The notes under the pieces: model-generated
Database searches by the model: none
What the model saw: the letters and a program-made list of their open reading frames with translations, nothing else
Told to the model about the DNA's origin: nothing
In this document: piece after piece, positions 14,821 through 64,000 of the stretch
Position numbering within the stretch: the first letter of the stretch is position 1
How the letters are laid out: each line of letters starts with the position of its first letter
Made by a program: the position numbers and the translations under genes
Assembly (NCBI RefSeq): GCF_003018115.1
Contig: NZ_CP027457.1
Direction: 5' to 3' (one strand)
Origin: Escherichia coli
Lineage (GTDB): Bacteria; Pseudomonadota; Gammaproteobacteria; Enterobacterales; Enterobacteriaceae
DNA: 64,000 nucleotides

Positions 14821-15585
<765 letters not shown>

Positions 15586-22892: not shown

Positions 22893-22980
22893 GGTGAGGT
22901 GTCCGAGTGGCTGAAGGAGCACGCCTGGAAAGTGTGTATACGGCAACGTATCGGGGGTTCGAATCCCCCCCTCACCGCCA
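22893..22980 (+). tRNA. serX: tRNA-Ser (anticodon GGA)
   Basis: ggtgaggtgtccgagtggctgaaggagcacgcctggaaagtgtg...ggttcgaatccccccctcaccgcca; 88 nt with long variable arm, cu-GGA-aa anticodon loop and encoded CCA. Confidence 0.95.
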
Positions 22981-23129: not shown

Positions 23130-23971
23130 CTATACTGCCAGCATGTCAGGATAGTGTTTTGCGATAATATCATTCAGTCTGTCAACCAGTTCTGGTTTTC
23201 TGAACGTGATATGCGCGGAGCCCTTCTTAAAGTATCTGATGCTGAACATCTCATCTTCATAGTCCTCTTTTCCCTGAACAGATTGGATATGGTCATCCAG
23301 ATGAATGGTGATGTTTTCCCGGTTGTCGGGGATCGGTTTGCCGCTGAACAGGTGCAGCATTCTTTCCAGATCGGCAAGTCGATCGGCCTGTTGCCCGGTG
23401 ATAAGATGCCCCCCCACCGGTCCCACCTCACCAGATTGTTGACGATAATTTTACTGCCAAATTTGCAGGGTGAATTGGTTTTGTAATTCCAGCTCAGTCC
23501 CCTGAAAACGTTGATCACCCCTCGCTCAAACACTTCATCTTTGTTCTGGTGCAGTTGTTCAAACGTGCTCAGGATATTCGCTTCGCTGATTTCCGGAAAA
23601 TTATCGTACTCCAGTGACCGGTACCATGTATCACGGGCTTGTGCATCCATTAATGACAGCATCCCTGAACGTTGCATCAGGTCACGCCAGATTTCGCGGT
23701 CAAGGTTGTGGGTGATGGCTTTCATTGCGGTTTCCGGTTTCTCCATGAGCCAGCAGCCACAGCGAAAATCCTGTTTCATGGCCCAGTCCAGTGCGGTTTT
23801 ACCTCCGATGCTTTCCGCCAGCACCGAGATTTCTGCCAGTTGCCGGATAAGCGTGTCGATTTGCAGCAGTGTACTTTTTCGTACAGCCAGAATGTGGCGG
23901 ATACTGGTTGAGCAGATAACGTCCGTATGCCCGTTGACAACTTCCAGACGAGAGGCTGTGATATCAGACAT
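23130..23971 (-). pseudogene. DUF4942-type protein, frameshifted in a C7/G7 tract
   Basis: ORFs 23174..23971 and 23130..23426 are consecutive parts of one protein (...LVRWDRWG | GHLITGQQADRLADLE...); junction at the C7 run 23409-23415. Confidence 0.75.
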
Positions 23972-41414: not shown

Positions 41415-41660
41415 ATGAATATGAATGAAGATGAGATTTATCGCCATATCCGGCAGGCACTTTCCAGTGCGCCGCGTAACCAGTACACCGTCGAGCTACA
41501 CCTGCAAATGATTAAATATGCCGACGAACTGGAACACATTACGGCAAAAGCCTTTTGCGAAGGCACCGGTCTGAGCCAGAGCCTCGGTACCGAATTCAGC
41601 AAAATGCGTAACTTAACCCGTCGGTTGAAGGCCGCCGGTCTGAATACCGATCTGCTGTAA
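41415..41660 (+). CDS. small putative HTH protein preceding hsdM
   Basis: ORF 41355..41660; ATG 41415 gives 81 aa MNMNEDEIYRHIRQALSS...ITAKAFCEGTGLSQSLGTEFSKMRNLTRRLKAAG (HTH-like by eye). Confidence 0.6.
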   Translation: MNMNEDEIYRHIRQALSSAPRNQYTVELHLQMIKYADELEHITAKAFCEGTGLSQSLGTEFSKMRNLTRRLKAAGLNTDLL

Positions 41661-41699: not shown

Positions 41700-44138
41700 A
41701 TGGCTATCAAAAAAACCGAACTCTATTCTTCCCTGTGGGCAAGCTGCGACGAACTGCGTGGCGGGATGGACGCCAGCCAGTACAAAGACTATGTACTGAC
41801 CCTGCTGTTTATGAAGTACGTTTCCGATAAGTATAAAGGCGATCCTTACGGGATGATCGTGATACCCAAAGGAGCCAGCTTTGACGATATGGTTGCGCTG
41901 AAAAATGACAAAGAGATCGGCGACAAAATCAACAAAATCATCCACAAGCTGGCGGAAGAGAACGGCCTGAAGGGCGTCATCGACGAAGCCGACTTTAACG
42001 ACGAAGATAAGCTCGGCAAAGGCAAGGAAATGATTGACCGCCTGAGCAAGCTTGTCGGTATCTTTGAAGGGTTAGATCTCTCCAGCAACCGGGCCGAAGG
42101 CGACGATCTGTTGGGCGATGCCTATGAATATCTGATGCGTCACTTCGCAACCGAATCCGGCAAGAGTAAAGGGCAGTTTTACACTCCGGCGGAGGTGTCA
42201 CGTATTCTGGCGAAGGTGATTGGTATTACTCCCGATACGCCGCGAGATGCAACGGTTTATGACCCAACCTGTGGCTCTGGTTCGCTGCTGTTGAAAGTGA
42301 ATGATGAAGCCCGGCGCGGACTATCGATTTTCGGCCAGGAGATGGATAACGCTACCAGTGCACTGGCGCGGATGAACATGATTCTGCATAACAATGCCAC
42401 CGCGAAAATCTGGCAGGGTAATACGCTGAGCGATCCGCAGTGGAAAGAGGCGAACGGCAAACTGAAAGCCTTCGATTTTGCCGTGGCGAACCCGCCTTTT
42501 TCCAATAAAAACTGGACCAACGGGTTGACGCCGAAAAAAGATCCGTTTGAACGCTTCGGCTGGGGCATTCCGCCGGAGAAAAACGGCGATTATGCTTTTT
42601 TGCTGCATATCATTAAAAGCCTGAAAAGTACCGGCAAAGGCGCGGTGATCCTGCCCCATGGCGTACTGTTTCGCGGTAACGCCGAGGCAAATATCCGTGA
42701 AAATCTAATCAAGCAGGGCTATATCAAAGGCGTTATTGGTTTGCCGGCCAACCTGTTTTACGGCACCGGCATCCCGGCGTGCATTATTGTGATTGATAAA
42801 GAGCACGCCCACAGCCGCAAAGGCATTTTTATGATCGACGCCAGTCGGGGCTTTATCAAAGATGGCAACAAGAACCGCCTGCGTAGCCGAGATATTCACC
42901 GCATTGTGGACGTGTTCAACCATCAGCGAACGGTGCCGGGCTACAGCCGGATGGTGCCCTCCAGCGAGATCGCCGGAAATGATTACAACCTGAATATTCC
43001 TCGCTATATCGAGAGCGGCGAGCCGGAAGATTTGCACGATCTGACCGCGCACTTACAGGGCGGTATTCCAGCACGCGATGTGGATGCTTTGCAGGATTAC
43101 TGGCGGGTATTCCCTGCCCTGCGCAACGTGCTGTTTGCTGACGACCGTTCCGGTTACTGTCGGGCGCAGGTGAACGCGCAGCAGGTGAAACCAACCATTC
43201 TGGCACATCAGGAGTTTAAGGATTTTGCCACCCGCAGCCTGCTACCGTTTAAAGCGTGGGTGAAAGAGGCAAGTCTGGAAGAGATTCGCAAAGGTGATAA
43301 ACCCAAAGCGCTGATCCACGATATCAGCGAGATGTTGCTTGTGCAGTACGCCAACAGTGAGTTGCTGAACAAGTACAGCGTGTACCAGATCCTGATGGAT
43401 TACTGGGCTGATGTCATGCAGGACGATGTGTATGTGATTATGCAGGATGGCTGGCAAGCCGCCGCGCAAATCCGCGAGCTTCAACCGGTGAAAGGCAAAG
43501 ATGGCAAAAACATCTGGAAAGAAACGCACGATTTCGAGTTTACCAAACAGCGCTACAAGGCCGATGTGCTACCCCGTTCACTAGTGGAAATTCGCTGCTT
43601 CCCGGAACTGCTGGATACGTTGAACCGCGCGCAGGAGCGCAGTGAAGAAGCCAGTCGTCAGCTAGCGGAACTCATCGAGGAGCAGGCAGGGGAAGAGGAT
43701 CTGCTGGCTGAGGCGAAGAACGATAAAGATAAGGTGACGCAAAAGCTGGTGAATGCCCGTCTGGCACAGTTGAAGAAAACCCCTGCCGACCCAGATGAGC
43801 TGGCAGTGCTGAACCGCTGTCTGGCGCTGATTAAGGCCGAGGCCAGTGCGAAAAAAGCGCTGAAAGCCGCACAGGAAGCGTTGGATCGAGCGGTATTTAA
43901 ACATTATCCCACGCTGGATGAAACAGCGATTAAAACGCTGGTAGTGCAGGATAAGTGGCTGGCAACGTTGCAGGCAGGAATCAAGGCGGAGATTGAGCGT
44001 ATTACCCAGCAACTGGCGTCGCGCGTAAAGGAGCTGGAAGAGCGTTATGCTGAACCGTTGCCAGCGCTTGAAGCCTCCGTTGAGGCGTTGAGCGAGAAAG
44101 TGGCCGGGCATTTGCGGGCGATGGGGCTGGAGTGGTGA
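41700..44138 (+). CDS. hsdM: type I R-M methyltransferase subunit (long form, 812 aa)
   Basis: AdoMet motif VYDPTCGSGSLLL and catalytic motif FAVANPPFS; about 330-aa charged, helical-looking C-terminal extension. Confidence 0.92.
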   Translation: MAIKKTELYSSLWASCDELRGGMDASQYKDYVLTLLFMKYVSDKYKGDPYGMIVIPKGASFDDMVALKNDKEIGDKINKIIHKLAEENGLKGVIDEADFNDEDKLGKGKEMIDRLSKLVGIFEGLDLSSNRAEGDDLLGDAYEYLMRHFATESGKSKGQFYTPAEVSRILAKVIGITPDTPRDATVYDPTCGSGSLLLKVNDEARRGLSIFGQEMDNATSALARMNMILHNNATAKIWQGNTLSDPQWKEANGKLKAFDFAVANPPFSNKNWTNGLTPKKDPFERFGWGIPPEKNGDYAFLLHIIKSLKSTGKGAVILPHGVLFRGNAEANIRENLIKQGYIKGVIGLPANLFYGTGIPACIIVIDKEHAHSRKGIFMIDASRGFIKDGNKNRLRSRDIHRIVDVFNHQRTVPGYSRMVPSSEIAGNDYNLNIPRYIESGEPEDLHDLTAHLQGGIPARDVDALQDYWRVFPALRNVLFADDRSGYCRAQVNAQQVKPTILAHQEFKDFATRSLLPFKAWVKEASLEEIRKGDKPKALIHDISEMLLVQYANSELLNKYSVYQILMDYWADVMQDDVYVIMQDGWQAAAQIRELQPVKGKDGKNIWKETHDFEFTKQRYKADVLPRSLVEIRCFPELLDTLNRAQERSEEASRQLAELIEEQAGEEDLLAEAKNDKDKVTQKLVNARLAQLKKTPADPDELAVLNRCLALIKAEASAKKALKAAQEALDRAVFKHYPTLDETAIKTLVVQDKWLATLQAGIKAEIERITQQLASRVKELEERYAEPLPALEASVEALSEKVAGHLRAMGLEW

Positions 44139-45445
44139 TGGTGGATTTAATGGTGAATGAGCAACGATCAGGTACGGCGGGGAAAGATGTGCCTGCGGGG
44201 TATAAGCTGACTGAGGTGGGGGTGATTCCTGAGGATTGGGTAGTAATCTCTATTGATGACTGTACAACCAAAGTTGGTAGTGGAAAAACACCAACTGGTG
44301 GAGCATCTGTTTATATTGATAGCGGACGCCCTTTTGTCCGTAGCCAAAATGTTGATTGGGGAAGATTAGATCTCGCCGATGTCGTACATATTACAGATGA
44401 AACCCATAACACATTCTCTGGTTCTGAAATTCAGCAAGATGATGTTTTACTCAACATAACGGGAGCATCTATCGGCCGATGCGCTAAAGCTGATTTTAGG
44501 GTTATAGGTGGTAATGTTAACCAACATGTTTGCATCATCAGAACAGAGGCAAAAAAACTCTCCCCATCCTTACTGGTTGAATTAATCAATTCAAATTATG
44601 GACAAAACCAGATTGATAGTTATCAAGCCGGAGGAAACAGAGAAGGACTGAATTTTTCTCAAGTTAAAAATCTTAAGTTTGCTATTACACCAAACTCCCT
44701 TGAACAAACGGAAATTGTCAGAACATTAAATGATATTAATGCATTCACTCTCGCTCTGGAAAACTTAATTGCTAAAAAACAGGCCATAAAAGCCGCTGCT
44801 ATGCAACAACTACTCACCGGTAAAACCCGTTTGCCGCAGTTTGCGTTGCGCAAAGATGGATCTGCTAAGAGATATAAAAAGAGCAAGTTGGGGGAGACTC
44901 CAGAAGATTGGGCAGTTAATAATATTGGAGATTTATTCTCCATTACCGCAGGAGGAGATTTAAGACAGTCTGAATTCTCTAATATTCAATCTGAAAAACA
45001 TCTTTACCCTATTTATTCCAATGCAATTAGTCATTATGGTTTATATGGCTATTGCCAGAGTTATGATTATGTTGGTGACTATCTAACAATCACTGCGAGG
45101 GGAGGAATCGGCCATGCCGTGGCAAGAAAAGGAAGATTCTGTGCAATTGGACGATTATTAGTTCTTAGTCCAAAAGGAGATTCAAACGTAAAATTTTATG
45201 AAGGGTATATAAACCAATACTTATCATTTGCAAATGAGAGCACTGGAGTCCCTCAACTTACAGCTCCTCAAGTTGCAAAATATCCGGTTGTTTCCCCATG
45301 CATTGAAGAACAAACCGCCATCGCCACCATCCTCTCCGATATGGACAAGGAAATTCAGACCCTGCAACAACGTCTGGACAAAACCCGTCAGCTTAAACAG
45401 GGGATGATGCAGGAGCTGTTAACCGGGAAAACACGCTTAATATAA
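44135..45445 (+). CDS. hsdS: type I R-M specificity subunit
   Basis: Start overlaps hsdM stop; two AT-rich variable TRDs separated by conserved [26 protein letters not shown] and ending [17 protein letters not shown]. Confidence 0.92.
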
Positions 45446-45456
45446 AAGGGAAACCT

Positions 45457-46107
45457 ATGACTACAGCGCCAGCCTCAATCCGCAAAAAGCCCTGATCTGG
45501 CGTATCGTCCATCGGGACAATATCCCGTGGATTCTGGACAATGGTCTGCACTGCGGCAACAGCCCGGTGCAGGCTGCTAACTGGATCAATATCGGCAACC
45601 CGGAGCTTATCGGCAAGCACGCCGGACATCCGGTACCTGTCGGGACGGGCGGGACACTGCGTGACTATGTGCCATTTTATTTTACCCCCTTCTCGCCAAT
45701 GCTGATGAACATCCACAGCGGACGTGGCGGCATTAAGCAACGCCCCAATGAAGAGATCGTTATTCTGGTCAGCAGCCTGCGGCACGTGGCAGCACACGAC
45801 GTGCCCTTCGTGTTTACCGACAGCCATGCTTACTATAACTGGACCAACTACTACACCAGTCTGGATAGTCTGGACCAGATCGACTGGCCCATTTTGCAGG
45901 CACGGGACTTTCGCCGCGATCCAGACGATCCGGCTAAATTTGAACGCTATCAGGCAGAGGCGCTAATCTGGCAACACTGCCCGATCTCGCTGCTGGATGG
46001 GATAATTTGTTACAGCGAAGAGGTCAGGTTACAATTAGAACAATGGTTGTTTCAGCGTAATCTAACAATGTCCGTTCACACACGGGCTGGATTGGTACTT
46101 CTCATGA
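45457..46107 (+). pseudogene. darT: DarT ssDNA ADP-ribosyltransferase toxin, out of frame at both ends
   Basis: ATG 45457 (frame 1) stops after 12 codons; body in frame 0 ([19 protein letters not shown]...[16 protein letters not shown]...[11 protein letters not shown]...RYQAEALIW...) aligns with recalled Thermus DarT; native-looking end ..DWYFS* (TGA 46105-46107) is back in frame 1. Confidence 0.8.
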
Positions 46108-47171
46108 TCACATATACACAAGGCAATTTACTGGACGCACCGGTGGAAGCTCTGGTGAATACGGTTAATACCGTCGGTGTCATGGGGAAAGGCATCGCGT
46201 TGATGTTTAAAGAGCGCTTCCACGAAAATATGAAAGCCTATGCCCTCGCCTGCAAACAAAAGCAGGTGATCACCGGCAAAATGTTCATTACCGAAACCGG
46301 GGAACTGATGGGACCGCGCTGGATTGTTAATTTTCCGACCAAACAGCACTGGCGCGCTGACTCCCGCATGGGGTGGATTGAAGATGGCTTACAAGACTTA
46401 CGTCGATTTTTGATTGAAGAGAACGTGCAATCCATCGCCATTCCACCGCTGGGCGCAGGCAACGGTGACTTGAACTGGCCGGACGTTCGGGCGCAGATTG
46501 AATCTGCCCTTGGCGACCTTCAGGACGTTGATATCCTGATTTACCAACCAACTGAAAAATACCAGAACGTTGCCAAAAGCACTGGCGTAAAAAAGCTCAC
46601 TCCCGCCAGAGCCGCCATCGCTGAACTGGTGCGTCGCTACTGGGTATTGGGGATGGAGTGCAGCCTACTGGAAATCCAGAAACTGGCCTGGCTGTTACAA
46701 CGCGCCCTTAAGCAGCATCAACAGGACGATATCCTCAAACTGCGGTTTGAAGCTCACTATTATGGCCCCTATGCGCCCAATCTGAACCATCTGCTTAATG
46801 CGCTGGACGGCACCTATCTTAAAGCCGAGAAACGCATCCCGGACAGCCAACCGCTGGATGTGATCTGGTTTAACGATCAGAAAAAAGAACACGTTAATGC
46901 GTATCTGAACAGCGAAGCCAGAGAGTGGCTACCGGCGCTGGAGCAGGTCAGCCAGTTAATTGACGGCTTTGAATCGCCGTTTGGTCTGGAGCTGCTGGCA
47001 ACCGTAGACTGGTTGCTGAGCCGTGGCGAATGTCAACCAACACTGGATTCCGTTAAGGAAGGGCTGCACCAGTGGCCTGCGGGCGAACACTGGGCCAGCC
47101 GTAAGTTGAGGCTGTTTGATAATAATAATCTGCAATTTGCCATTAACCGCGTAATGGAGTTCCATTGCTGA
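46104..47171 (+). CDS. darG: DarG macrodomain antitoxin
   Basis: 355 aa [39 protein letters not shown]...[12 protein letters not shown]...[14 protein letters not shown], closely parallel to recalled Thermus DarG; ATG overlaps the darT TGA (ATGA). Confidence 0.9.
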
Positions 47172-47189
47172 GGGTTTAAGGAGCGCCTT

Positions 47190-50100
47190 TTGAGTACCGT
47201 GGGCCAGCGCGAACGCGCCACACAGCAGCGTCTGATTCAGTTTTTTGTTGAAGATTTAGGTTACCGCCATCTGAGTCACCGCACCGGGTACACCGGGAAC
47301 AGCAACATCGACACTAATATACTGAGCGCGTGGCTAAAACGGCGCGGCGTTAATGATACGTTGATCACCCGGGCGTTGCGGCAACTGGATTCCGCCGCCG
47401 CTCTGGGCGAAGGCAAAAAACTCTATTACGCCAATAAAGAGGTCTATCGCCTGCTACGTTACGGCGTGAAAGACAAAGAAGGCGCAGGCGAGCAGAACCA
47501 AACCGTGTGGCTGATTGACTGGGCCAACCCACAAGCCAATGATTTCGCCATCGCCGATGAGGTGACGGTCAAAGGCGAGTACTGCAAGCGCCCGGATCTG
47601 GTGCTGTACGTTAACGGCATTGCGCTGGGCGTGATTGAACTTAAGCGTTCGTCAGTGCACGTCAGCGAAGGCATCCGGCAGAATCTCGATAATCAAAAGA
47701 AAACCTTTATCCGCGATTTCTTCACCACTATGCAGTTAGTGATGGCGGGCAACGATACGCAGGGCCTGCGCTACGGCACCATCGAAACCCCGGAAAAATA
47801 CTATCTGGAGTGGAAAGAAGATAATCCAGGCGACTATACACATAAACTCGACTTTCATTTAAGTCGTCTGTGTAGCAAATCCAGGCTGTTGGATATCGTC
47901 CATAATTACATTGCCTTTGATGTCGGAGTGAAAAAACTCTGCCGCCATAATCAGTTCTTCGGCGTCGAGGCGGCTAAACAACATATTGCCCGTCGTGAAG
48001 GCGGTATTATCTGGCACACACAGGGATCGGGTAAAAGCCTGACGATGGTCTGGCTGGCGAAGTGGATCCGTGAAAATGTGCCAAACTCCCGCGTGTTGAT
48101 TGTGACTGACCGCACCGAACTGGATGAACAGATCGAAAGCGTGTTTATGGGCGTGAATGAAGATATTTATCGCACCTCCAGCGGCAACGATCTTATCGCA
48201 ACGCTCAATCATCCTAACCCGTGGCTCATTTGCTCGCTGGTGCATAAATTTGGTCGTCGCAGCGAAGCTGAAGACAATGCGGCTACCGACGCCTTTATCA
48301 CCGAATTACAGCAGTCCCTGACGAAAACATTCCGCGCCAAAGGCGATCTGTTTGTTTTTGTGGACGAGTGCCACCGCACACAATCCGGCAAGCTGCATAA
48401 CGCCATGACTGCCATTCTGCCGGACGCCCTGTTTATCGGTTTTACCGGCACACCGCTGATGAAGAAAGATAAGAAGAAGTCGGTTGAGGTGTTCGGCCCT
48501 TATATCCATACCTATAAATTTGATGAAGCGGTGGCCGACGGTGTGGTGCTGGATCTGCGCTACGAGGCACGCGATATTGACCAGTATCTGACATCAGAGA
48601 AAAAGGTCGATGACTGGTTTGAAGCCAAGACTCGCGGTTTGTCGAATTTAGCCAGGACCCAGCTTAAGCAAAAGTGGGGATCAATGCAGAAGCTGCTCTC
48701 CAGCAAGTCGAGGCTGGAGCAGATCGTTAACGACATTTTGCTGGATATGGATACCCGTCCACGCCTGATGGACGGGCGCGGCAACGCCATGCTGGTATGC
48801 AGCAGTATCTATCAAGCCTGCAAGGTTTACGAGATGTTCAGCCAGACCGAGCTGGCAGGAAAAGTAGCGATTGTGACCAGCTATCGCCCCGATGCCGCCA
48901 GCATCAAAGGCGAAGAAACGGGCGAAGGGTTAACGGAGAAACTCTCTAAACACGCCACCTATCGTAAAATGTTGGCTGACTATTTTGAACAAAGTGAAGA
49001 GAAGGCCGCCGCACGCATTACCGAGTTCGAGCGGGAAGTGAAACAGCGTTTTATTGAAGAGCCGGGGCAAATGCGCCTGCTTATCGTGGTGGATAAGCTG
49101 CTGACTGGCTTTGACGCGCCGTCCGCCACCTATCTCTACATTGATAAAACCATGACCGACCATACGCTGTTTCAGGCGATTTGTCGGGTGAACCGGCTGG
49201 ACGGTGAGGATAAAGAGTATGGCTATATTATCGATTATAAAGATCTGTTCCGTTCGCTGGATAAAGCGATTACCGATTACACCACGGGCGCGTTTGATGA
49301 TTACGATCGGGACGATGTGGCCGGGTTGCTGAAAGACAGGCTGGAGCAGGCGCAACTGGATCTCGACAGCGCGCTGGAGATGGTTCGCAGCTTATGTGAA
49401 CCCGTCAAAACCCCGCGCAGCCTGCAGGACTATCAGCACTATTTTTGCGGTGAATCAGGAGAGAATCAGACTTCGTTAAACGAAAAAGAGGCGCTGCGCC
49501 TGACATTTTACCAGTGCGTCGCCCGTCTGCTACGCGCTTATGCCAGCATCGCCAATGAAATGCCGGAAGCAGGCTACACTGCCGAAGAGGTAGAGAGCAT
49601 TCGCGCCGAAGTCGCTGAATTCGAAAAACTGCGCTATGAGATTAAGCTGACCAGCGGCGATCTTCTGGATATGAAGCGCTTTGAACCCGCTATGCGTCAT
49701 TTACTGGATATGTATGTTCGCGCCGATGATAGCGAAGTGCTGATGGATTTTGAAGAGTTAAGTCTGATTGAACTGATTGTCGAGAAAGGCTTGGCGGCGA
49801 CCGTCGCCCTGCCGGATGATATCCGTAATAATCAGGATGCGATGGCGGAAACCATCGAAAACAACGTGCGCAAAACCATCGTGGATGAAAACCCGGTTAA
49901 CCCAAAATACTATGGACGCATGTCGCAGCTGCTGGATGAACTGATTACCCTTCGCCGACAAAATGCGCTCAATTATCAGCAGTATCTGGAACGTATCCGC
50001 GATTTGTGTAAACAAGTCATCCGCCCGGAGCAAACCGCCGGAGCGTGCTACCCTGCCACCATGGATACACAAGCAAAGCGCGCCTTCTATGATAACTTCG

Positions 50101-50285
50101 GCCACGACGAGGTACTGGCGACCCGCATAGATACGACGATTCGCTATACCAAAAGGGCAGAGTGGATTGGCGATCGTTTTAAAGAACGGGAAATTGCCAA
50201 CGCATTACGTGAAGAGACCGCCAGCTATAATATTGATATTGATGAGGTGATAGCGCTTGCCCGTCAGCAGAAGGAATATCACTGA
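47190..50285 (+). CDS. hsdR: type I R-M restriction/translocase subunit
   Basis: 1031 aa; nuclease PD...ELK (RPDLVLYVNGIALGVIELKRS), Walker A TQGSGKSLTM, DECH box VFVDECHRTQSG; TTG 47190 follows aaggag. Confidence 0.92.
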   Translation: MSTVGQRERATQQRLIQFFVEDLGYRHLSHRTGYTGNSNIDTNILSAWLKRRGVNDTLITRALRQLDSAAALGEGKKLYYANKEVYRLLRYGVKDKEGAGEQNQTVWLIDWANPQANDFAIADEVTVKGEYCKRPDLVLYVNGIALGVIELKRSSVHVSEGIRQNLDNQKKTFIRDFFTTMQLVMAGNDTQGLRYGTIETPEKYYLEWKEDNPGDYTHKLDFHLSRLCSKSRLLDIVHNYIAFDVGVKKLCRHNQFFGVEAAKQHIARREGGIIWHTQGSGKSLTMVWLAKWIRENVPNSRVLIVTDRTELDEQIESVFMGVNEDIYRTSSGNDLIATLNHPNPWLICSLVHKFGRRSEAEDNAATDAFITELQQSLTKTFRAKGDLFVFVDECHRTQSGKLHNAMTAILPDALFIGFTGTPLMKKDKKKSVEVFGPYIHTYKFDEAVADGVVLDLRYEARDIDQYLTSEKKVDDWFEAKTRGLSNLARTQLKQKWGSMQKLLSSKSRLEQIVNDILLDMDTRPRLMDGRGNAMLVCSSIYQACKVYEMFSQTELAGKVAIVTSYRPDAASIKGEETGEGLTEKLSKHATYRKMLADYFEQSEEKAAARITEFEREVKQRFIEEPGQMRLLIVVDKLLTGFDAPSATYLYIDKTMTDHTLFQAICRVNRLDGEDKEYGYIIDYKDLFRSLDKAITDYTTGAFDDYDRDDVAGLLKDRLEQAQLDLDSALEMVRSLCEPVKTPRSLQDYQHYFCGESGENQTSLNEKEALRLTFYQCVARLLRAYASIANEMPEAGYTAEEVESIRAEVAEFEKLRYEIKLTSGDLLDMKRFEPAMRHLLDMYVRADDSEVLMDFEELSLIELIVEKGLAATVALPDDIRNNQDAMAETIENNVRKTIVDENPVNPKYYGRMSQLLDELITLRRQNALNYQQYLERIRDLCKQVIRPEQTAGACYPATMDTQAKRAFYDNFGHDEVLATRIDTTIRYTKRAEWIGDRFKEREIANALREETASYNIDIDEVIALARQQKEYH

Positions 50286-51001
50286 TGCCAATCATGCAAA
50301 TAGGCTCGTTACACTTGCTGGTCAACCGTAAGGCGATTAAGAATCTGCATATCAGCGTGCTGCCGCCTGATGGCAAAGTCCGCGTTTCAGCGCCGGAACA
50401 TATGACGGAGACGGCGATTCGTATGGCGGTTGCTTCACGCTTTCGCTGGATCAGAAAACAGCAGCAGGATTTCGCCAGACAGCCTCGTCAATCAGAGAGG
50501 GAAATGGTCAGCGGAGAGTGCCACTATCTTTGGGGCCGAAGATATCGCCTACTTGTGATTGAGCGTCACGGGCGTCACGAAGTAAAAGTTGCGGGAAATA
50601 ATAAGCTCCAGCTTTATGTTCAACCGGGAACCCGTGATGAAAATAAGGCATTGGCGTTAAGTGAATTTTATCGACATGAACTAAAACAGCAGGTGGCTAA
50701 GCTTCTACCTGAATGGCAGGACCGAATCGGTGTTCCCCTAACATTCTGGGGCATCAAAAAGATGAAAACCTTTTGGGGCACCTGTAACACTACAACAAAA
50801 CGAATCTGGCTCAATCTGGAGCTAATTAAGAAGCCGCCGGAGTGTCTGGAGTATATTCTGGTGCATGAACTGGTTCATCTTCTGGAACGTCACCATAATG
50901 CTCGCTTCCGGTTGCATATGGATCGGTTTATTCCTGACTGGCGTGAGCGTCGGGATTTGTTAAATAATATGCCGTTAGCGTTTGAGGCATGGGAGTATTG
51001 A
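50285..51001 (+). CDS. DUF45/YgjP-like zinc metallopeptidase
   Basis: 238 aa; HELVH at 50864-50878; ATG overlaps the hsdR stop (TGATG). Confidence 0.8.
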   Translation: MPIMQIGSLHLLVNRKAIKNLHISVLPPDGKVRVSAPEHMTETAIRMAVASRFRWIRKQQQDFARQPRQSEREMVSGECHYLWGRRYRLLVIERHGRHEVKVAGNNKLQLYVQPGTRDENKALALSEFYRHELKQQVAKLLPEWQDRIGVPLTFWGIKKMKTFWGTCNTTTKRIWLNLELIKKPPECLEYILVHELVHLLERHHNARFRLHMDRFIPDWRERRDLLNNMPLAFEAWEY

Positions 51002-54289: not shown

Positions 54290-55657
54290 CTACCTGTTTA
54301 GCTGTTTCAATATTGTTTCAAAAGACTTTTCATTGCCTTCAAAAGGTATGACTTGCTTCACCGCTTTTCCAGGGCCTTTACCCTGCGAGTAATCCCATAT
54401 ATTGATGTGTGTGCCTTTTTCAGGATCATAATCAACACGCCAACCAACTTTTCCGTCGCTGGATTGCCGCCCTATGACTTTCCCATTACCAGCGCTGACT
54501 TCCAAACGTCCGATAACTGGCTTAGAGTCCGCTCCTAAATTACCTACAAGATCCAATGCCTTGTTTCGAGCAGTTTCCCAGTTTTTCTCTGGCTTGAGGA
54601 TTTGTTCAATTTTAGGCTGGGAATTCCCTTTAACCTTACTAATTCCCCCAAATGCTGACGCCGCAGCGCTCGCGACTATTCCCGCCTGAACTTCATCCAA
54701 ACCGTATTCTTCTTGGAGTGCTTCCGAGACTTTGTTGGTCGCGACAACCCCTTCAGCCTGCATTTGCTGCGCAAAAGTCGCCGTCAGATCGTAGACCATT
54801 TTGATCGGGATATCTTCACCCAGAGCACGATCTATTGCCTGCTTCACCGCCAGACTGTCAGTCAGTACATCACCGTATTTCTGCTGGCAGGTTGCCGGGC
54901 TGGCTGCACAGTCACTGATCAGTTGCTTTTGCTGTGCCGTACTCAACTCTTCGTACTTTTTGATAATACCGCCGCAGTCACCGCCTTTCGCCTGACAGGA
55001 CTTCATTTCAGCGGACCAAGCATCTATCTGCTTACTGCTCAGATAGTTATTCTCAACAGCATTCTTCCCGCTTTGTGCTCCCACTGCTGCTGATGCGGTG
55101 CTGTTTCCGGTAAGACCTCCGGCCAGCCCTGCTGACACGGTTGCCAGCGTACTTATCGTTTGCTTCTGCTCTTCACTGAGGTCTGACTGTTTCACGCCCG
55201 GATACAGCATGCCGGCAATCGCTCTGACTGCCAGCTCTCCCGTTGCTGCGCCTGCTGCACCGGCAGCAACATTATTACCCTGCATTGCCGCCACTGCGCC
55301 GCCCAAAATGGCGTGAGCAATGGCGTTTACTGCCGGGTCTTTTTCTGTTGATTTCAGCAGGTGCGCCAGTTCCGGAGCCGAAGTTCCGGCCAGAGCACCC
55401 GCTAAATTACCCCCCGCCAGCCCCTGAAGCGCGGCCTGGATACCCCGCTGAATTTCACTGCCGGTACCATACTTCGCCATTTCATCCCTGTAAGCCTGCG
55501 TGTCACGCAGTTTTGCCAGATATGCCTGCCGCTGCTCTTCCGTCGCATCCGCCGGAACAGGCCCATATTTATCCTGCGCAGCCTTCAACGCATTCAGTTC
55601 CCCCTGCGTCCGCGCAATATCAGCCACCTGACTGCCTATGTCACTGATAAGCCCCAC
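54290..55657 (-). CDS. orphan cdiA-CT module 4 (pretoxin remnant + VENN + toxin domain)
   Basis: VENN encoded at 55046-55057 ([11 protein letters not shown]); about 200 aa upstream resembles the resident cdiA pre-VENN region; homology extends to about 55705 ([12 protein letters not shown]) beyond the first ATG. Confidence 0.8.
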
Positions 55658-55742
55658 TGTCTGCAGACGCTGCTGCTCTTTTTCCTTGTCAAAGATGGAA
55701 AAGCAAAAAAACCAGCCAACTGAACTAGCTGGTAGTTAAAGT

Positions 55743-56006
55743 CTATTTGATTTTGCTTAAAATATTATTGACTATCGGTATTACAGAACTAACCAATTGC
55801 TCTTCCTCAACTGTATACAAAAGCAATTCGATCTCATTCTCCGCATTAAATAACATTGTATGGAGCCACTTTTCCTCAACAGCAACAATTTGGCTTTCCG
55901 CAGCATAAATTTCTGATTGAATACTTTGTACCGTTATTTTCCCTTCAAGAAAGTTTTTACAAGAGTGTTGTAACCTCTCGATCACCTCAGGATAAATCCA
56001 ACTCAT
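55743..56006 (-). CDS. CdiI-type immunity protein, orphan module 3
   Basis: 87-aa AT-rich ORF overlapping the toxin stop by 4 nt. Confidence 0.65.
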   Translation of the reverse strand: MSWIYPEVIERLQHSCKNFLEGKITVQSIQSEIYAAESQIVAVEEKWLHTMLFNAENEIELLLYTVEEEQLVSSVIPIVNNILSKIK

Positions 56007-56737
56007 TGCCCACTCCTGCGAAGAATAGTAACAATAATATTACTGTTATTTTCAGTGACTACACCTACGTCACCACTCCAATAAGTCGTTCTAGTTACGC
56101 CATTAACGACACTATTTTGAGGAGTTCCTTCTTTGATAACACTTTCAACCATATTCGGCGTTATATTTCTCCCTGGGCCAACTGTGCCGGCTGGAGAACC
56201 AGATGGCTGCATTCTATCAACAGCATGTTGTGAATACAAACGATGACCTATTTGTGCATATTGTCGCCCATCTACTGTAACCTTTCGATAATTTTGCCAA
56301 GAGTCCCAAGGTAACTTTTCAGAACTATTAGGTACGTTTTCTGATGAGGTTTTCTCATTACGTTGCTCTATTGATTCATTATTCCTGGCGTTCTCCTCAT
56401 CCTGCGGCTCCCATCCCCCCGGTGTTCCAGCACCTGCGCCACCAAGCTCAGCTTTCTCCTTGTCCGTAGCGCTCGCTACGTCTTTGCCCAGATTCGGCTG
56501 TTTGTTTTCGTCTGTATTGTCGCCATTCAGCACATACCCCGGCCCCCGGGCACCATCGCGACTCGGATCACGTACAGCACACTGTTCCCGTGAGCCTTCA
56601 CAACCACCACCGGTATCCCAGCTATTATCATTCCCGGTATCCTTACTGGCATTACCTGTAGCACCAGCTATTGCTGCTGCCGTATTAGCTGCTGTTTCAG
56701 TGGCTATCACGTTCAGCATATTGTTTTCAGCAACAAC
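56003..56737 (-). CDS. orphan cdiA-CT module 3 (AENN variant; DUF4258/RelE-fold-like C-terminus)
   Basis: Frame opens IVVAENN-MLNV...; C-terminus ...YSQHAVDRMQPSG...GRNITPNMVESVIKEG...VTILRR resembles my recollection of DUF4258-type RNase toxins. Confidence 0.65.
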   Translation of the reverse strand, partial: VVAENNMLNVIATETAANTAAAIAGATGNASKDTGNDNSWDTGGGCEGSREQCAVRDPSRDGARGPGYVLNGDNTDENKQPNLGKDVASATDKEKAELGGAGAGTPGGWEPQDEENARNNESIEQRNEKTSSENVPNSSEKLPWDSWQNYRKVTVDGRQYAQIGHRLYSQHAVDRMQPSGSPAGTVGPGRNITPNMVESVIKEGTPQNSVVNGVTRTTYWSGDVGVVTENNSNIIVTILRRSGQ

Positions 56738-59219: not shown

Positions 59220-59438
59220 AACAACTCTTTCCGACATAAGTTGCTGCGATGAACCCGGATTCTCCCTGCATTTTCCGTTAGTTACAGCCGATTTTCCCTG
59301 TTGTACTTCCTGCCCGCCAACTTTTTGTGCTGTTAAGCGTTTCTGGCCCCGCAGACGCTACCGCCCCGCCGTGACGCGCCACCATCATATAAGCAAACTA
59401 CAGCACCACTTAGGATGGTGGTGTCTTGGATTTATATT

Positions 59439-59822
59439 TCAATTAAGAAGTTCCTTTGATACGTTACCAGTATCAAAAAACTCTTTTAAGATCTTTACAA
59501 TAAGTTCACAGTCTTTTGTAAGCTGAGATTCCGGCCAGTAATCACCAAGAATCACCATTTTTGTATCAGGTTTAGATGAGTCCCAGTACGTTCTTACTTG
59601 GTATTCATCTTCAAAAATTTCACCTAATGTTATCAAGTAATAACCATTCTCCGTTCTGATCTGAAGCATTTCAGCGCTATTATCGCCACTGTTCTGTATA
59701 TCAAGAGTAAGTGTTCCTTTTTTTCCCTGAATTAGTTTAAACTGATTTAATACCATGTCCCAATTTGAGATCTGTTTATTGCCACCTGTTTCGCCCAGTG
59801 TCCAACTCACTTTAAAATTCAT
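59439..59822 (-). CDS. cdiI: CdiI immunity protein of the resident cdiA
   Basis: 127-aa AT-rich ORF starting 1 nt after the cdiA stop codon. Confidence 0.8.
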   Translation of the reverse strand: MNFKVSWTLGETGGNKQISNWDMVLNQFKLIQGKKGTLTLDIQNSGDNSAEMLQIRTENGYYLITLGEIFEDEYQVRTYWDSSKPDTKMVILGDYWPESQLTKDCELIVKILKEFFDTGNVSKELLN

Positions 59823-59823
59823 T

Positions 59824-62800
59824 TTAATCCCTAACCTTGAGAGATTTCATGCCAGGCTGCCAGTAGAGGACTGATCCTGTAGCCTCTTCATAAATTGTTA
59901 AAGATTTTAGCCCCGCTTTATCAGCCATGGCTGCTATATCACCGCGGCAATAACCACATACAGGCTCTTTAGATACACTCATTGTCATCTCACGCCCTTG
60001 AGACATACCCTTTTCAAAAGCTTGCTGTATAACACCTACTTCAGCATGAGCTGTAGCCATATTGCCGTTAGGAAGAGGCTTGTTTTGCTTATCTATTTTA
60101 GCTTGGATTCGTCCATCAATGAGTGTTGGCTTATTCACATCTGCTAAGTTGGAAGGCCTTGCACCCTGATTAGTATCAGTAAACTTAGCTCCATCAACAT
60201 TACCTTTCGCTACGACCTTAAGATTAGCATCAACGATTTTACTTAATTGTTTTGCCGCAGCAGAACCCAAAATTGGTGTCACCGAAGCCGCAATGCTCTC
60301 CAGACCCTGCTTTGTTTCGGTGTAGCTTTCTGCGGTCTGACGATCCACCCCTTTGGTGACCATGAAATAGTTAATCATGGCGTCTTTCACCTGTTGCTGA
60401 TTCTGTGCATCAACACTGGTGATATCGAGGAGATTGACCATCTGACCATACGCATCAGCGTATTGCTGGCTGTATTTCGAGTTATAAGGGCCATCTTCGT
60501 ACCCTTCTTTCGACGCAATAACTTTCAGTCTTGCGCTGGCACACGCTGAACTACCCGCATTACCATTACCGCAGGCAGCAATAACCTCCTTATCACTGGC
60601 AATATCTTTCTCACGCAGAGCATTATATTTCTGTTGCGCCTTTTCGCGCTCTGCCGGATCTTTACTATTTTTAAGCGTCTGTTTTGCTATCTCAAGCTCT
60701 GTCTTTTCAGACACGCTAAGATAGTTATTCTCAACCGCGTTCCTGCCTGCCTGTGCCCCCGTACCGGCAGACGCCGTACTGTTGCCTGCAAGCCCGCCCG
60801 CAATACCTGAGGCAATGGTGGCCAACATGCTGATTTGCTGACGTTCCTGTTCACTCAGGTTATCAGTACGACCACCATAGTAGTTATCAATGATATACCG
60901 GGCTGCAAGTTCACCGCTGAATGCCCCTGCAGCACCGGAAGCCGCATTGTTTCCGCCCAGTTGTGCGGCAAGCGCTCCCCAGACTGCGTGAGCCATCAGG
61001 TTTGCTTCCCGGTTATCGCCGGTGGCCTGTTTTATAAGCTGTGCCACTGCCGGATTCAGACCGCCAGCCAGTATCTGCCCCGGATTCCCTGCATTCAGTC
61101 CGCCCAGCACACCCGTGATGGCCTGTACCACCATCTGCGGCGTACTGCCCGTACCGTAGCCTTTCATGACCTCTCTGTATTCCGGGGTCTCCCGCAACTG
61201 TGCATCGCTCATGCCAGGATGCTCTTTCCTGGCTGCTTTCATCGCTTCAGTTTCGCCATACGTCATGACGATGTTACTCATCTGACCGCTAATCTGGCTG
61301 ATAACCTGCGCTTCCTGCAGACGCTTCTGCTCTTTCTCCCTGTCAAATATCGGTGCAATGCTGCCGTTGGCGTTTTCCGGGTCCCGGCTGAGCCCGGCAA
61401 TATCCTGCTTCTGACTCTCATTATCACGGATAATGAGATTTCCGCCGCTGATGGCGGATGACGTGGTACCTTCAGCATGTCCACTGCTGCCGGACATACC
61501 GGTAAGTGCGTTCGCCGCACCGGCTATTGCATTTGAGGCCACCATCTGGCTGGCTGACATCCCTGAGCCACCCGATAAACTGATTCCGGTATGGCTGGCT
61601 TTATAGTCTGCCTGGTTATGGATATCCGACCAGCCCAGCGTATTGGTATTGAGGCTGTTTTTGTCATCCGTTGCCGTGGACGCAATTACCGCACCATTGA
61701 GCTGAGTGTGATTCCCAACAGTGACATCAAACCCGTCTTTTCCGGCGTAGATACCACTCTGTTCCCGGACAGAATCGTAATTGCTTTTAATTTTGTCCTG
61801 ACTGATGCTGGCATAGCCGCTGCCGGACATTGAGCCAAACGTGAAGCTTCCACCTGCAGCCACGCTGTTCTGTCTGCTGTCGTAACGGTCACTGTCCTGA
61901 AGGCTCGAAATGGTCAGGTTGTTGCCGACATCTGCTGTGACTTTCTCGCCACTGACCTGAGCCCCCGACAGGGTGGTATCACGTCCGCTTGTGAGGGAGA
62001 CATTTTTACCCGCATCCAGCGTGGTTTCGGTCCAGGTCGTGCCGTTGCCTTTCTCCCTGCCCTCTGAACCATTGATACCGGCGAAGATACTGAGGCCTCC
62101 GCCATTGGTTCCACCACCAAAGCTGACGCCCACGCCGCCACCTTTGCTGCTGTTCTTCCCGGTTGTCTGTCGGGTGTCAGCGGCGGCAGCCAGCAGAATA
62201 TCGTTCTGTGCATTCAGGCTGGTGTCATTGCCGGACTTAATCTGGCTCCCGGTAATGAGAATATCGCCGCTGTTGTTATGGTCCTTATTTTTCCCCGTGG
62301 CAGTGACAGAGACATTGTTACCGGCGCTGAGGGTTGAGCCGGAGACGATATCGTGCTGATATTTCGTCTCAGACTTCGACTGCTGATGGTTGAGCGAAAT
62401 GCTCACGCCGATACCATTATTCGGGTCAGCACTCTGTTGCTGCAGTCCGTGGTTAACACCGGCCTGTACACCAGACAGAACCGCCTGTGTTCCTTTCAGT
62501 GCCGCCAGACGGCTGTCGCTGGTTTCTTTCGCCTCCCGGGCCATGGTGGCAGCATTATTGATGGCACTGCCCACTGTGCCGGAAAGGGCAACCGTCAGCC
62601 CGCTTTTCTTCTGCTCAAATTTTTCGTCCACAGTACGACGGTCATGCCCCGGGTCAACCACCACACTGTCACCGGTAATGCTGATATCCCGGTTCGCAAT
62701 CACATCCGAACCGCTGATATGAGCCTGTTTGCCCGCGGTAATACTGACATTACCAGCAGTGGAGCCGATGGTGCTGGCACTCTGACTCTGCGTTGTCCCG

Positions 62801-64000
62801 GCCTCGCGGCGGTCGTGCGTTGTCTTACTGCTGCCAGTGGTGAAACCAATACCGCCGGTACCCGTCAGACCGGATTTCTTCGTTTCCTTAAAGCGCCAGG
62901 ACGTATCTGTACTGGTGGCAGCAAGAACATCAACATGGTTATCCGCCGCCAGTGACACATCCCAGTCAGCCACCACATCCGAACCCTGTACCGTCAGGTT
63001 ATTACCGGCGTTAACGGTCACGCGGTTTCCCGACAGCAGGGAGCCCTTCTCACGGGTGACGCTGTCTTCCGTGATGGTCCGGGTGGTCTGATGGCTGAGG
63101 AGACGGTTACGGGTTTCCCCTGATTCACTGTAGTGATAATCACTTTCCGTGGCAGTACCCAGTACGATGTCATGACCGGCATTCACACGGATATCGCCCT
63201 TTGCCGTTACAGCGGTCGCAACTGAGGTGATATCCCGTCCGGCAGTAACCGTAATGTCACCGCCACTGGTCATGTCTGTTCCCTGCTGCCGGACCGAATC
63301 ATGAACCGTCTTCATGCTGAAAGTGCTGTCGTGGTCACCTGCGCCTGTGGACTCCGCAGCCATGTTCACATCCCGTCCGGCGCGGATAGCCATACTGTTT
63401 TCAGCCGTAATACCGGCAGCCTGGCTGTTCACATCACGACCGGCGGAAAGCATCAGACTGTTCCCGGCAGTGACCGTGGGGGCCACGGCATGAGTTTCAT
63501 ACCACCCGGACCCGCCATAGCGACGACGTTCTCCGGCCTGTATCGCGTTCATGTTCAGGTCATTACCGGCGGACAGTAACACGCTGTCACCGGCAGAAAC
63601 GGCGGCACCGGTGATACTGATATCCCCGGCTGCGCCCATAAACAGTGAGTCCGTTGCCCTGACAGCAGCCAGCGGACCGGTATCCGTTCCGCTGAAATGG
63701 TTATATCCGTTGTTCATCGCCCACTGTTCTGTCCGGGTGAGGTTACTGATGTTTCCGGTGGCGCTTTCCAGGGATACGGTTTTACCGCTGATGACTGAGC
63801 TGATATTGCCGATATCCCCGATGGCCTTCAGGTTCAGTGCACCACCGGCGTTTATCAGTCCGGCATTCAGGTTGTCGATACTACCTGTGCTGTCGAGCAG
63901 GAGGTCATTCTGTGCGTTGATGCTGCCGCCGCTGTTGGTGATATTGCCACCCGCAAGCTGCACGTTGTTCCCGCTGATAACGCTGCCATTATGAAGGGTG
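59824..64000 (-). CDS. cdiA: CdiA contact-dependent inhibition exoprotein, C-terminal about 1390 codons (5' end outside window)
   Basis: Frame open to the window edge; filamentous-haemagglutinin-type repeats, pretoxin region, VENN at 60724-60735, then a 303-aa CT. Confidence 0.93.

Follow-up and report, generated by a model that had tools for sequence, protein, structure and literature searches.

A frameshifted darT beside an open darG in an RRDM-type defence island of Escherichia coli

The window described here is a 64000-nucleotide stretch of Escherichia coli contig NZ_CP027457.1 (assembly GCF_003018115.1), and all positions refer to it. With a probability of about 0.9, its darT gene is a clade-specific pseudogene within an otherwise standard RptR-HsdM-HsdS-DarT-DarG-HsdR-M48 (RRDM) island. 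Comparison of the genomes shows that the continuity of the darT frame has been lost at both ends of the gene in a five-genome clade, where its decay is ongoing. The pseudogene is already annotated in RefSeq and lies within a published defence island; it is in that sense an ordinary feature. A first-pass annotation of this DNA had left a choice between recent inactivation of the toxin with retention of the antitoxin, and an unusual fused arrangement of the two proteins. It is the former that is borne out: the lesions occur in only 5/249 records, RefSeq lists the gene as a pseudogene, one clade member has gone on to delete a further 226 bp, and the dN/dS of darT is low.

The island and its toxin gene

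The first gene of the island is an rptR-like gene for a small HTH repressor (41421-41660, +), carried in RefSeq as an “HTH-like domain-containing protein” (WP_024175231.1), with coordinates converted from NZ_CP027310.1 3153712-3153951. It lies directly upstream of hsdM and matches the published position of rptR. There follow hsdM, the methylase subunit of a type I restriction-modification (R-M) system (41700-44138, +, WP_000985461.1), and hsdS, its specificity subunit (44138-45445, +, WP_000228012.1 and the ORF list). After darT and darG come hsdR, the type I restriction endonuclease subunit (47190-50285, +, WP_000108736.1 and the ORF list), and, as the last gene, an M48 family metallopeptidase (50285-51001, +, WP_001122107.1). 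This order is that of the RRDM islands (RptR-RMS-DarTG2-M48), the seven-gene defence island of EPEC E2348/69 in which DarTG2, placed between hsdS and hsdR, takes part in phage defence (PMC12255303). The M48 accession named for the EPEC island is identical to that of the window (PMC12255303). A functional DarTG2 arm is however missing here, with darT disrupted at both ends.

The darT gene, of the DarT2-type single-stranded DNA thymidine ADP-ribosyltransferases, occupies 45457-46107 (+) and is recognized as DarT by Pfam, NCBIfam, and PADLOC, while PGAP marks 45492-46107 as a “frameshifted” pseudogene. The region matches Pfam PF14487 at 1.3e-40 with 139.7 bits (cut-off 22.5), and the body frame of the protein scores 212 bits against NCBIfam NF048013, rising to 256 bits once repaired (cut-off 150). 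The intact orthologue is WP_000312835.1, of 218 residues. The family is encoded by unbroken ORFs of about 213-220 aa, each having a start and a stop of its own; the window has no such ORF. The window sequence is 100% identical to that of E. coli 2014C-4135 (NZ_CP027310.1), where RefSeq also flags darT as a “frameshifted” pseudogene, beside an intact darG (WP_024175232.1).

Seen against DarTG2 of EPEC E2348/69 (DarT WP_000312835.1, DarG WP_000634203.1; PMC12255303, PMC7003065), the window has the same gene order, M48 accession, and ATGA overlap, as well as residues E170 and G49 of DarT, and the nucleotide identity over darTG is about 96.7%. Unlike EPEC darT, the window gene lacks 7 bp at its start, has an extra T before its stop, and carries R57H, and no 218-aa DarT is possible. 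The catalytic glutamate (E170 in EPEC numbering) is nevertheless present: homologue comparison places its GAG codon at 45957-45959 (+), within an intact RYQAE170ALIW, in keeping with what had been noticed in the first reading of the sequence. E170A is the standard inactivating mutation of DarT (PMC13368585).

Two lesions, one at each end of darT

When the window is aligned with intact EPEC darT, two indels are seen and no more: a loss of 7 bp and a gain of one T. At the 5′ end, the window reads GGGAAACCTATGACTACAGC, vs. GGGAAACCTATGGCCTATGACTACAGC in E2348/69. What is missing is one unit (CCTATGG) of the near-tandem repeat CCTATGG-CCTATGA, a unit that holds the in-frame ATG. The alignment and the raw junctions place the deletion at 45454-45460 (+), where one CCTATGA unit is left, the exact breakpoint being ambiguous within the repeat. 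The intact-type sequence is the 14-bp CCTATGGCCTATGA at this repeat and GGATGG at the 3′ site. The deletion turns ATG-GCC-TAT-GAC (M-A-Y-D) into ATG-ACT-ACA-GCG, which runs into a TGA stop at 45493-45495 after 12 codons. The sequence and its frame translation thus leave a 12-codon remnant ORF (45457-45495, +), which begins at the only ATG of darT served by a Shine-Dalgarno sequence and is out of the frame of the DarT body. Slippage between the two CCTATG direct repeats would have removed the 7 bp, and ribosomes loading at ATG 45457 would then read 12 codons and release a 12-aa peptide at the TGA. The first-pass annotation had also suspected a frame change at this end, placing it in a run of A residues (A5 instead of A6). 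The intact alleles have the same A5 run (CCG-CAA-AAA-GCC), so this does not hold. Repair of darT from A5 to A6 was accordingly rejected: the run is common to intact alleles, and the true lesion is the 7-bp deletion.

Since the 7 bp lost correspond precisely to a single unit of the near-tandem repeat CCTATGG/CCTATGA, a slippage-prone type of sequence, a phase-variable switch might be imagined, in which one or two copies of the 7-bp unit would toggle darT off or on. We consider this extremely improbable. The parental allele has just two units, and no repeat is present at this site in the majority E. coli allele, GCACATGGCTTATGA. Moreover, all five one-copy genomes also carry the extra T, and a regained unit would leave the gene broken.

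At the 3′ end, the alignment and a 66-nt allele query both point to a +1 insertion, with TT at 46092-46093 (+) where orthologues have a single T: the window reads GGATTGG, vs. GGATGG in 244/249 E. coli records. The insertion lies 15 nt before the native darT stop, and through it the body frame leaves WYFS* for the frame of darG. The native tail is R-A/S-G-W-Y-F-S*, reading RAGWYFS* in the majority allele and ...SVHTRSGWYFS* in the EPEC gene, while the window body frame has GLVLL in place of GWYFS. The one-base insertion thereby strips both the WYF tail and the stop from the DarT body. A single extra base in the interval 46083-46107 had already been proposed, and this part of the proposal stands; the base is however the T at 46092/46093, and not a G of the GG at 46089-46090. 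The native end deduced from that G, ADWYFS*, falls with it, since orthologues end in R-A/S-G-W-Y-F-S*. Repair by deleting the G was for the same reason rejected. The tail given for Thermus DarT in the first-pass annotation was correct: structure 7OMV ends in ...IRKDWY, aligned to TRAGWY. Repaired window DarT aligns with this Thermus sp. 2.9 protein (PDB 7OMV) over residues 11-216 (2e-25), including the ...R-x-x-W-Y tail. Unlike 7OMV, the window body frame stops short of W-Y.

The remaining ATG 45457 and the native TGA at 46105-46107 share a frame, the two lesions adding up to −6 nt. Between these codons the shared frame misreads darT and has many stops. That they share a frame at all is probably a coincidence, with a 1 in 3 chance.

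Distribution of the lesions and later changes in darT

The locus is present in 249 complete E. coli records, which correspond to 248/5426 genomes. With the 66-nt query spanning the 3′ site, 5 records match at 100%, and in the other 244 the alignment has a gap of one base. A 69-nt query spanning the 5′ site finds the short allele in the same 5 records, with the other 244 being 7-8 nt longer. Both lesions therefore occur together in the same 5/249 records. These come from strains 2014C-4135 (USA), 1303 (Germany), C311 (Hong Kong), CFIAFB20180511 (Canada), and STEC2017-197 (Switzerland), in all of which RefSeq annotates darT as “frameshifted.” Among the remaining 244 records, 233 have 99% identity or more to the majority allele, and every sampled row is of intact length. 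The comparison with other E. coli darTG loci that the first-pass annotation had put forward thus comes down on the side of a strain-specific lesion, with 244/249 records having the single base.

Could both indels simply be sequencing or assembly artifacts, the true genome having an intact darT? The same 64-kb window does contain other frameshifted genes (a DUF4942 gene, ymdA, and an IS66 tnpC), a pattern that can mean assembly indel errors. Identical lesions are however found in five independent complete assemblies from five countries, and neither sits in a long homopolymer, one being a 7-bp unit and the other a change from T to TT. The concordance of five independent assemblies rules out sequencing error, an explanation that we regard as next to impossible.

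Within the clade, darT has gone on changing. In STEC2017-197, a deletion of 226 bp has been added, bounded by 8-bp direct repeats, CTGCGGCA (positions 2159-2548 of its locus, L007, equivalent to window 45551-45784), which removes about a third of the DarT body, and Ala is replaced by Asp at window 45934. A Tyr-to-Ser change is common to strains 1303 and CFIAFB20180511. Judged from these genomes, the extra deletion and the missense changes in clade members are progressive decay of darT. A literature search on DarTG pseudogenes returned nothing specific to this lineage.

Divergence of the DarT body

The body of DarT is little decayed, with E170 and most of the catalytic core intact and a low dN/dS. 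The window protein has six amino-acid differences, of which P39, A43, S109, and H112 are common states in other species. At residue 57, on the other hand, homologues have a nearly invariant Arg, and the window has His (CAC, 45618-45620, +). In EPEC DarT2, R57A compromises editing, and growth resembles that with the catalytically dead E170A (PMC13368585). From residue conservation and the effect of R57A, R57H is a plausible candidate for a third inactivating lesion of darT, in this case a missense one, and it could even be the first event.

Compared with intact alleles, frame-repaired darT differs at 25-29 sites with a dN/dS of 0.07-0.14, and darG has a dN/dS of 0.16-0.18. The low value for darT means that most of the divergence predates the loss of function, so that inactivation is recent relative to the divergence of the allele. 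A protein search with repaired DarT found no intact copy of this divergent allele; its best match was 85% identical (Salmonella), and the E. coli DarT cluster was absent from the matches. This query also missed the approximately 97% identical E. coli proteins WP_000312833.1 and WP_000312835.1, while the search with the composite ORF did find the E. coli DarG cluster P0001 (759 members).

The divergence is unevenly spread. Of the 29 differences between darT and the majority allele, 27 fall within the first 354 nt (window 45457-45810), and hsdR, adjoining darTG, differs from the majority allele at only 2/1509 sites. This clustering, together with the near-identity of hsdR, indicates that the allele is a recombinational mosaic. 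In the N-terminal half of hsdR (window 47282-48597), 22 sites differ from the four other clade members and 2 from the majority allele (L004). The pattern of differences suggests patches of recombination across the island.

The composite DarT-DarG reading frame

Translation in three frames shows frame 0 running from the DarT body straight into darG, and frame 1 ending in ...HGLDWYFS*, with its TGA inside the ATGA at 46104-46107 that overlaps the ATG of darG. Both observations had been made from the letters alone, and both are seen in the translation. The ORF list and the frame translation give a composite ORF of 534 aa (45567-47171, +), made of DarT residues 40-213, then LVLL, and then DarG. 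Its Pfam matches are to positions 31-188 of 201 of the DarT profile, to Macro, and weakly to SocA_Panacea. The ATGA overlap of darG with darT is the reason why the T insertion puts the body frame in the register of darG. With darG beginning in the frame of darT shifted by +1, and with no more than four sense codons between the insertion and the darG ATG, the chance of meeting no stop after any +1 indel at this position is about 0.83. Any such indel would thus fuse the two ORFs more often than not by chance, and fusion by itself carries no information.

A genuine single-chain DarT-DarG protein, functional and kept by selection, would have in its favor the open 534-aa frame, holding both DarT and Macro domains, and the existence of a 497-aa two-domain match, P0010. 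The first-pass annotation had held that orthologues conserving the fused frame would make this a genuine fusion family. However, 119 of the best 120 matches to the composite ORF consist of DarG alone, with about 355 aa, and each of the best 120 matches to repaired DarT has a single domain and a length of 213-249 aa. The sole two-domain match, P0010, is a metagenome database singleton from one sequencing run; its contig is L011 1-2089 (Logan, SRR26541425). This contig has an in-frame stop in the N-terminal block of DarT (NLP*VL), a different junction, and an intact darG. As a genuine fusion P0010 was rejected, the in-frame stop showing that it is another broken darT beside an intact darG. Judging by this contig, a broken toxin with an open antitoxin seems to recur, P0010 being a second and independent case. 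Conservation of the fused frame is found neither in orthologues nor in independent lineages, and separate, overlapping genes are kept in 244/249 E. coli loci.

The fused frame also has no usable start. Its first ATG, GTG, or TTG codon is the GTG at 45567, already at residue 40 of DarT, and the Shine-Dalgarno pairing there (−1.7 kcal/mol) is well inside the random background. For comparison, the pairing energies are −5.3 kcal/mol at ATG 45457, −5.2 at darG, and −8.4 at hsdR. A scan of every start codon in frame 0 found none as strong as the annotated starts (−4.7 to −8.4), the best being −4.0 at GTG 45669. A product begun at GTG 45567 would moreover be without the L9-N37 block and without R212, W215, Y216, and F217. 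In 18 DarT homologues, L9-N37 is almost entirely invariant, R212, Y216, and F217 are invariant, and W215 is nearly so; the N- and C-terminal conserved segments also align with the Thermus structure 7OMV. In the window, the N-terminal block (L9...H21...N37) and the C-terminal R212/Y216/F217 are not translatable in one frame from a start codon. A functional fusion, lacking both a start and a Shine-Dalgarno sequence ahead of residue 40 and deprived of invariant terminal residues, is therefore extremely unlikely, and the “unusual fused arrangement” suggested earlier is to be set aside. It is improbable that the 534-aa composite ORF is translated as such; it looks like a mechanical by-product of ORF finding, with no initiation site of its own.

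Some low-level translation of the DarT body may still take place, through a −1 slip at CGC-AAA-AAG (45482-45490) or through non-canonical initiation. In E. coli, A-AAG is one of the motif types on which ribosomes slip more readily. A −1 shift at AAA-AAG (45485-45490) would take ribosomes from frame 1 to frame 0 just before the conserved ALIWRIVH block. By such recoding, the few ribosomes that slipped after loading at ATG 45457 would make a single chain of tail-less DarT(R57H) and DarG, covalently self-neutralized, which might keep some role in sensing or defence. The heptamer C-AAA-AAG is however only partial, not the canonical X-XXY-YYZ, and inspection reveals neither a Shine-Dalgarno-like stimulator upstream nor a suitably spaced hairpin downstream. 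All intact alleles have this A5 run too, in another frame, so that it was not selected for slippage; the product would carry R57H and lack WYF; and the deletion of 226 bp of the body by a clade member argues against selection on it. Recoding of this kind is thus very unlikely, and the reading that we retain is that of a darT pseudogene from which no active DarT would be made.

The darG antitoxin gene

Immediately downstream, darG (46104-47171, +, WP_024175232.1) is an intact ORF of 355 aa, encoding a macrodomain DNA ADP-ribosyl glycohydrolase with a C-terminal DarT-binding domain, as identified by RefSeq, NCBIfam, Pfam Macro, and PDB matches. The protein scores 443 bits against NCBIfam NF048014 (cut-off 250), covering positions 1-337 of 338 of the profile. 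It is also called by PADLOC, and its macrodomain matches PDB 5M31 and 5M3I at about 1e-52. Along with this full-length match and intact ORF, the invariant catalytic Lys80 is present, in FPTKQHW. The ORF is open in all five carrier genomes.

Two conserved macrodomain positions are nonetheless altered. Codon 40 (46221-46223, +) is His, where 22/22 aligned homologues and the Thermus and Mycobacterium structures have Pro. Codon 122 (46467-46469, +), in the GAGNGGL macrodomain loop, is Asp; Gly occupies this position in 21/22 homologues (with one Ser) and in PDB 5M31 and 5M3I. The window protein thereby departs at Pro40 and Gly122 from the DarG macrodomains of Thermus aquaticus and M. tuberculosis (5M31, 5M3I), and P40H and G122D are among the 8 substitutions that set it apart from EPEC DarG. 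In C311, DarG has A278E. From their conservation elsewhere, P40H and G122D would fit relaxed constraint following the loss of the toxin, and darG itself may be drifting.

There is at most a hint that darG is still under selection. All disruptive events of the clade (3/3) fell in darT, with P of about 0.055, or 0.15 without the founding lesion, which is not significant. That selection retains the gene, whether for protection against DarT toxins that come in or for repair of DNA-ADP-ribose, is very unlikely; it may be no more than a passenger, carried along between hsdS and hsdR. As in the general erosion of toxin-antitoxin systems, multiple toxin lesions are seen here beside an open antitoxin ORF, in this case in five genomes. 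Unlike orphan antitoxins in general, however, darG sits in a type I R-M operon.

Expression of darG could be affected by the state of darT. The gene would remain as an orphan antitoxin gene whose frame is open and which may still be expressed, and might be translated from its own weak Shine-Dalgarno sequence. As a speculation, the approximately 600 nt of untranslated mRNA before darG could bring about Rho-dependent polarity on darG and hsdR. A promoter and terminator scan of 45200-47300 gave counts no higher than in shuffled sequences.

The surrounding mobile region

The island lies within a larger mobile region beside a tRNA-Ser gene, flanked by IS66 (window 22893-22980 and onward to 64000). 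This region also carries a CbtA/YeeU toxin-antitoxin pair, an antirestriction gene, Ag43, an anti-phage dGTPase (39027-40388), three IS66 copies, and cassettes with orphan CDI toxin/immunity and colicin-D-domain genes (about 59234-64000). The other genes that RefSeq lists as frameshifted in the window are ymdA (14822-15132, −), the DUF4942 gene (23130-23971, −), and the IS66 tnpC (54710-56292, +).

Implications of the darT pseudogene

For annotation, the consequence is that the 534-aa ORF should not be named a fusion protein. The point extends to other loci, as overlapping ATGA gene pairs yield spurious “fusions” after any late +1 indel. In counts of defence systems, this island is to be scored as lacking a working DarTG2 arm; any function left to it would be that of a type I R-M system, with the abortive-infection arm gone. 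The locus offers a clean and small example of the stepwise erosion of a toxin, in which the start was lost, the stop was lost, and in one strain 226 bp were then deleted, with the antitoxin ORF open throughout.
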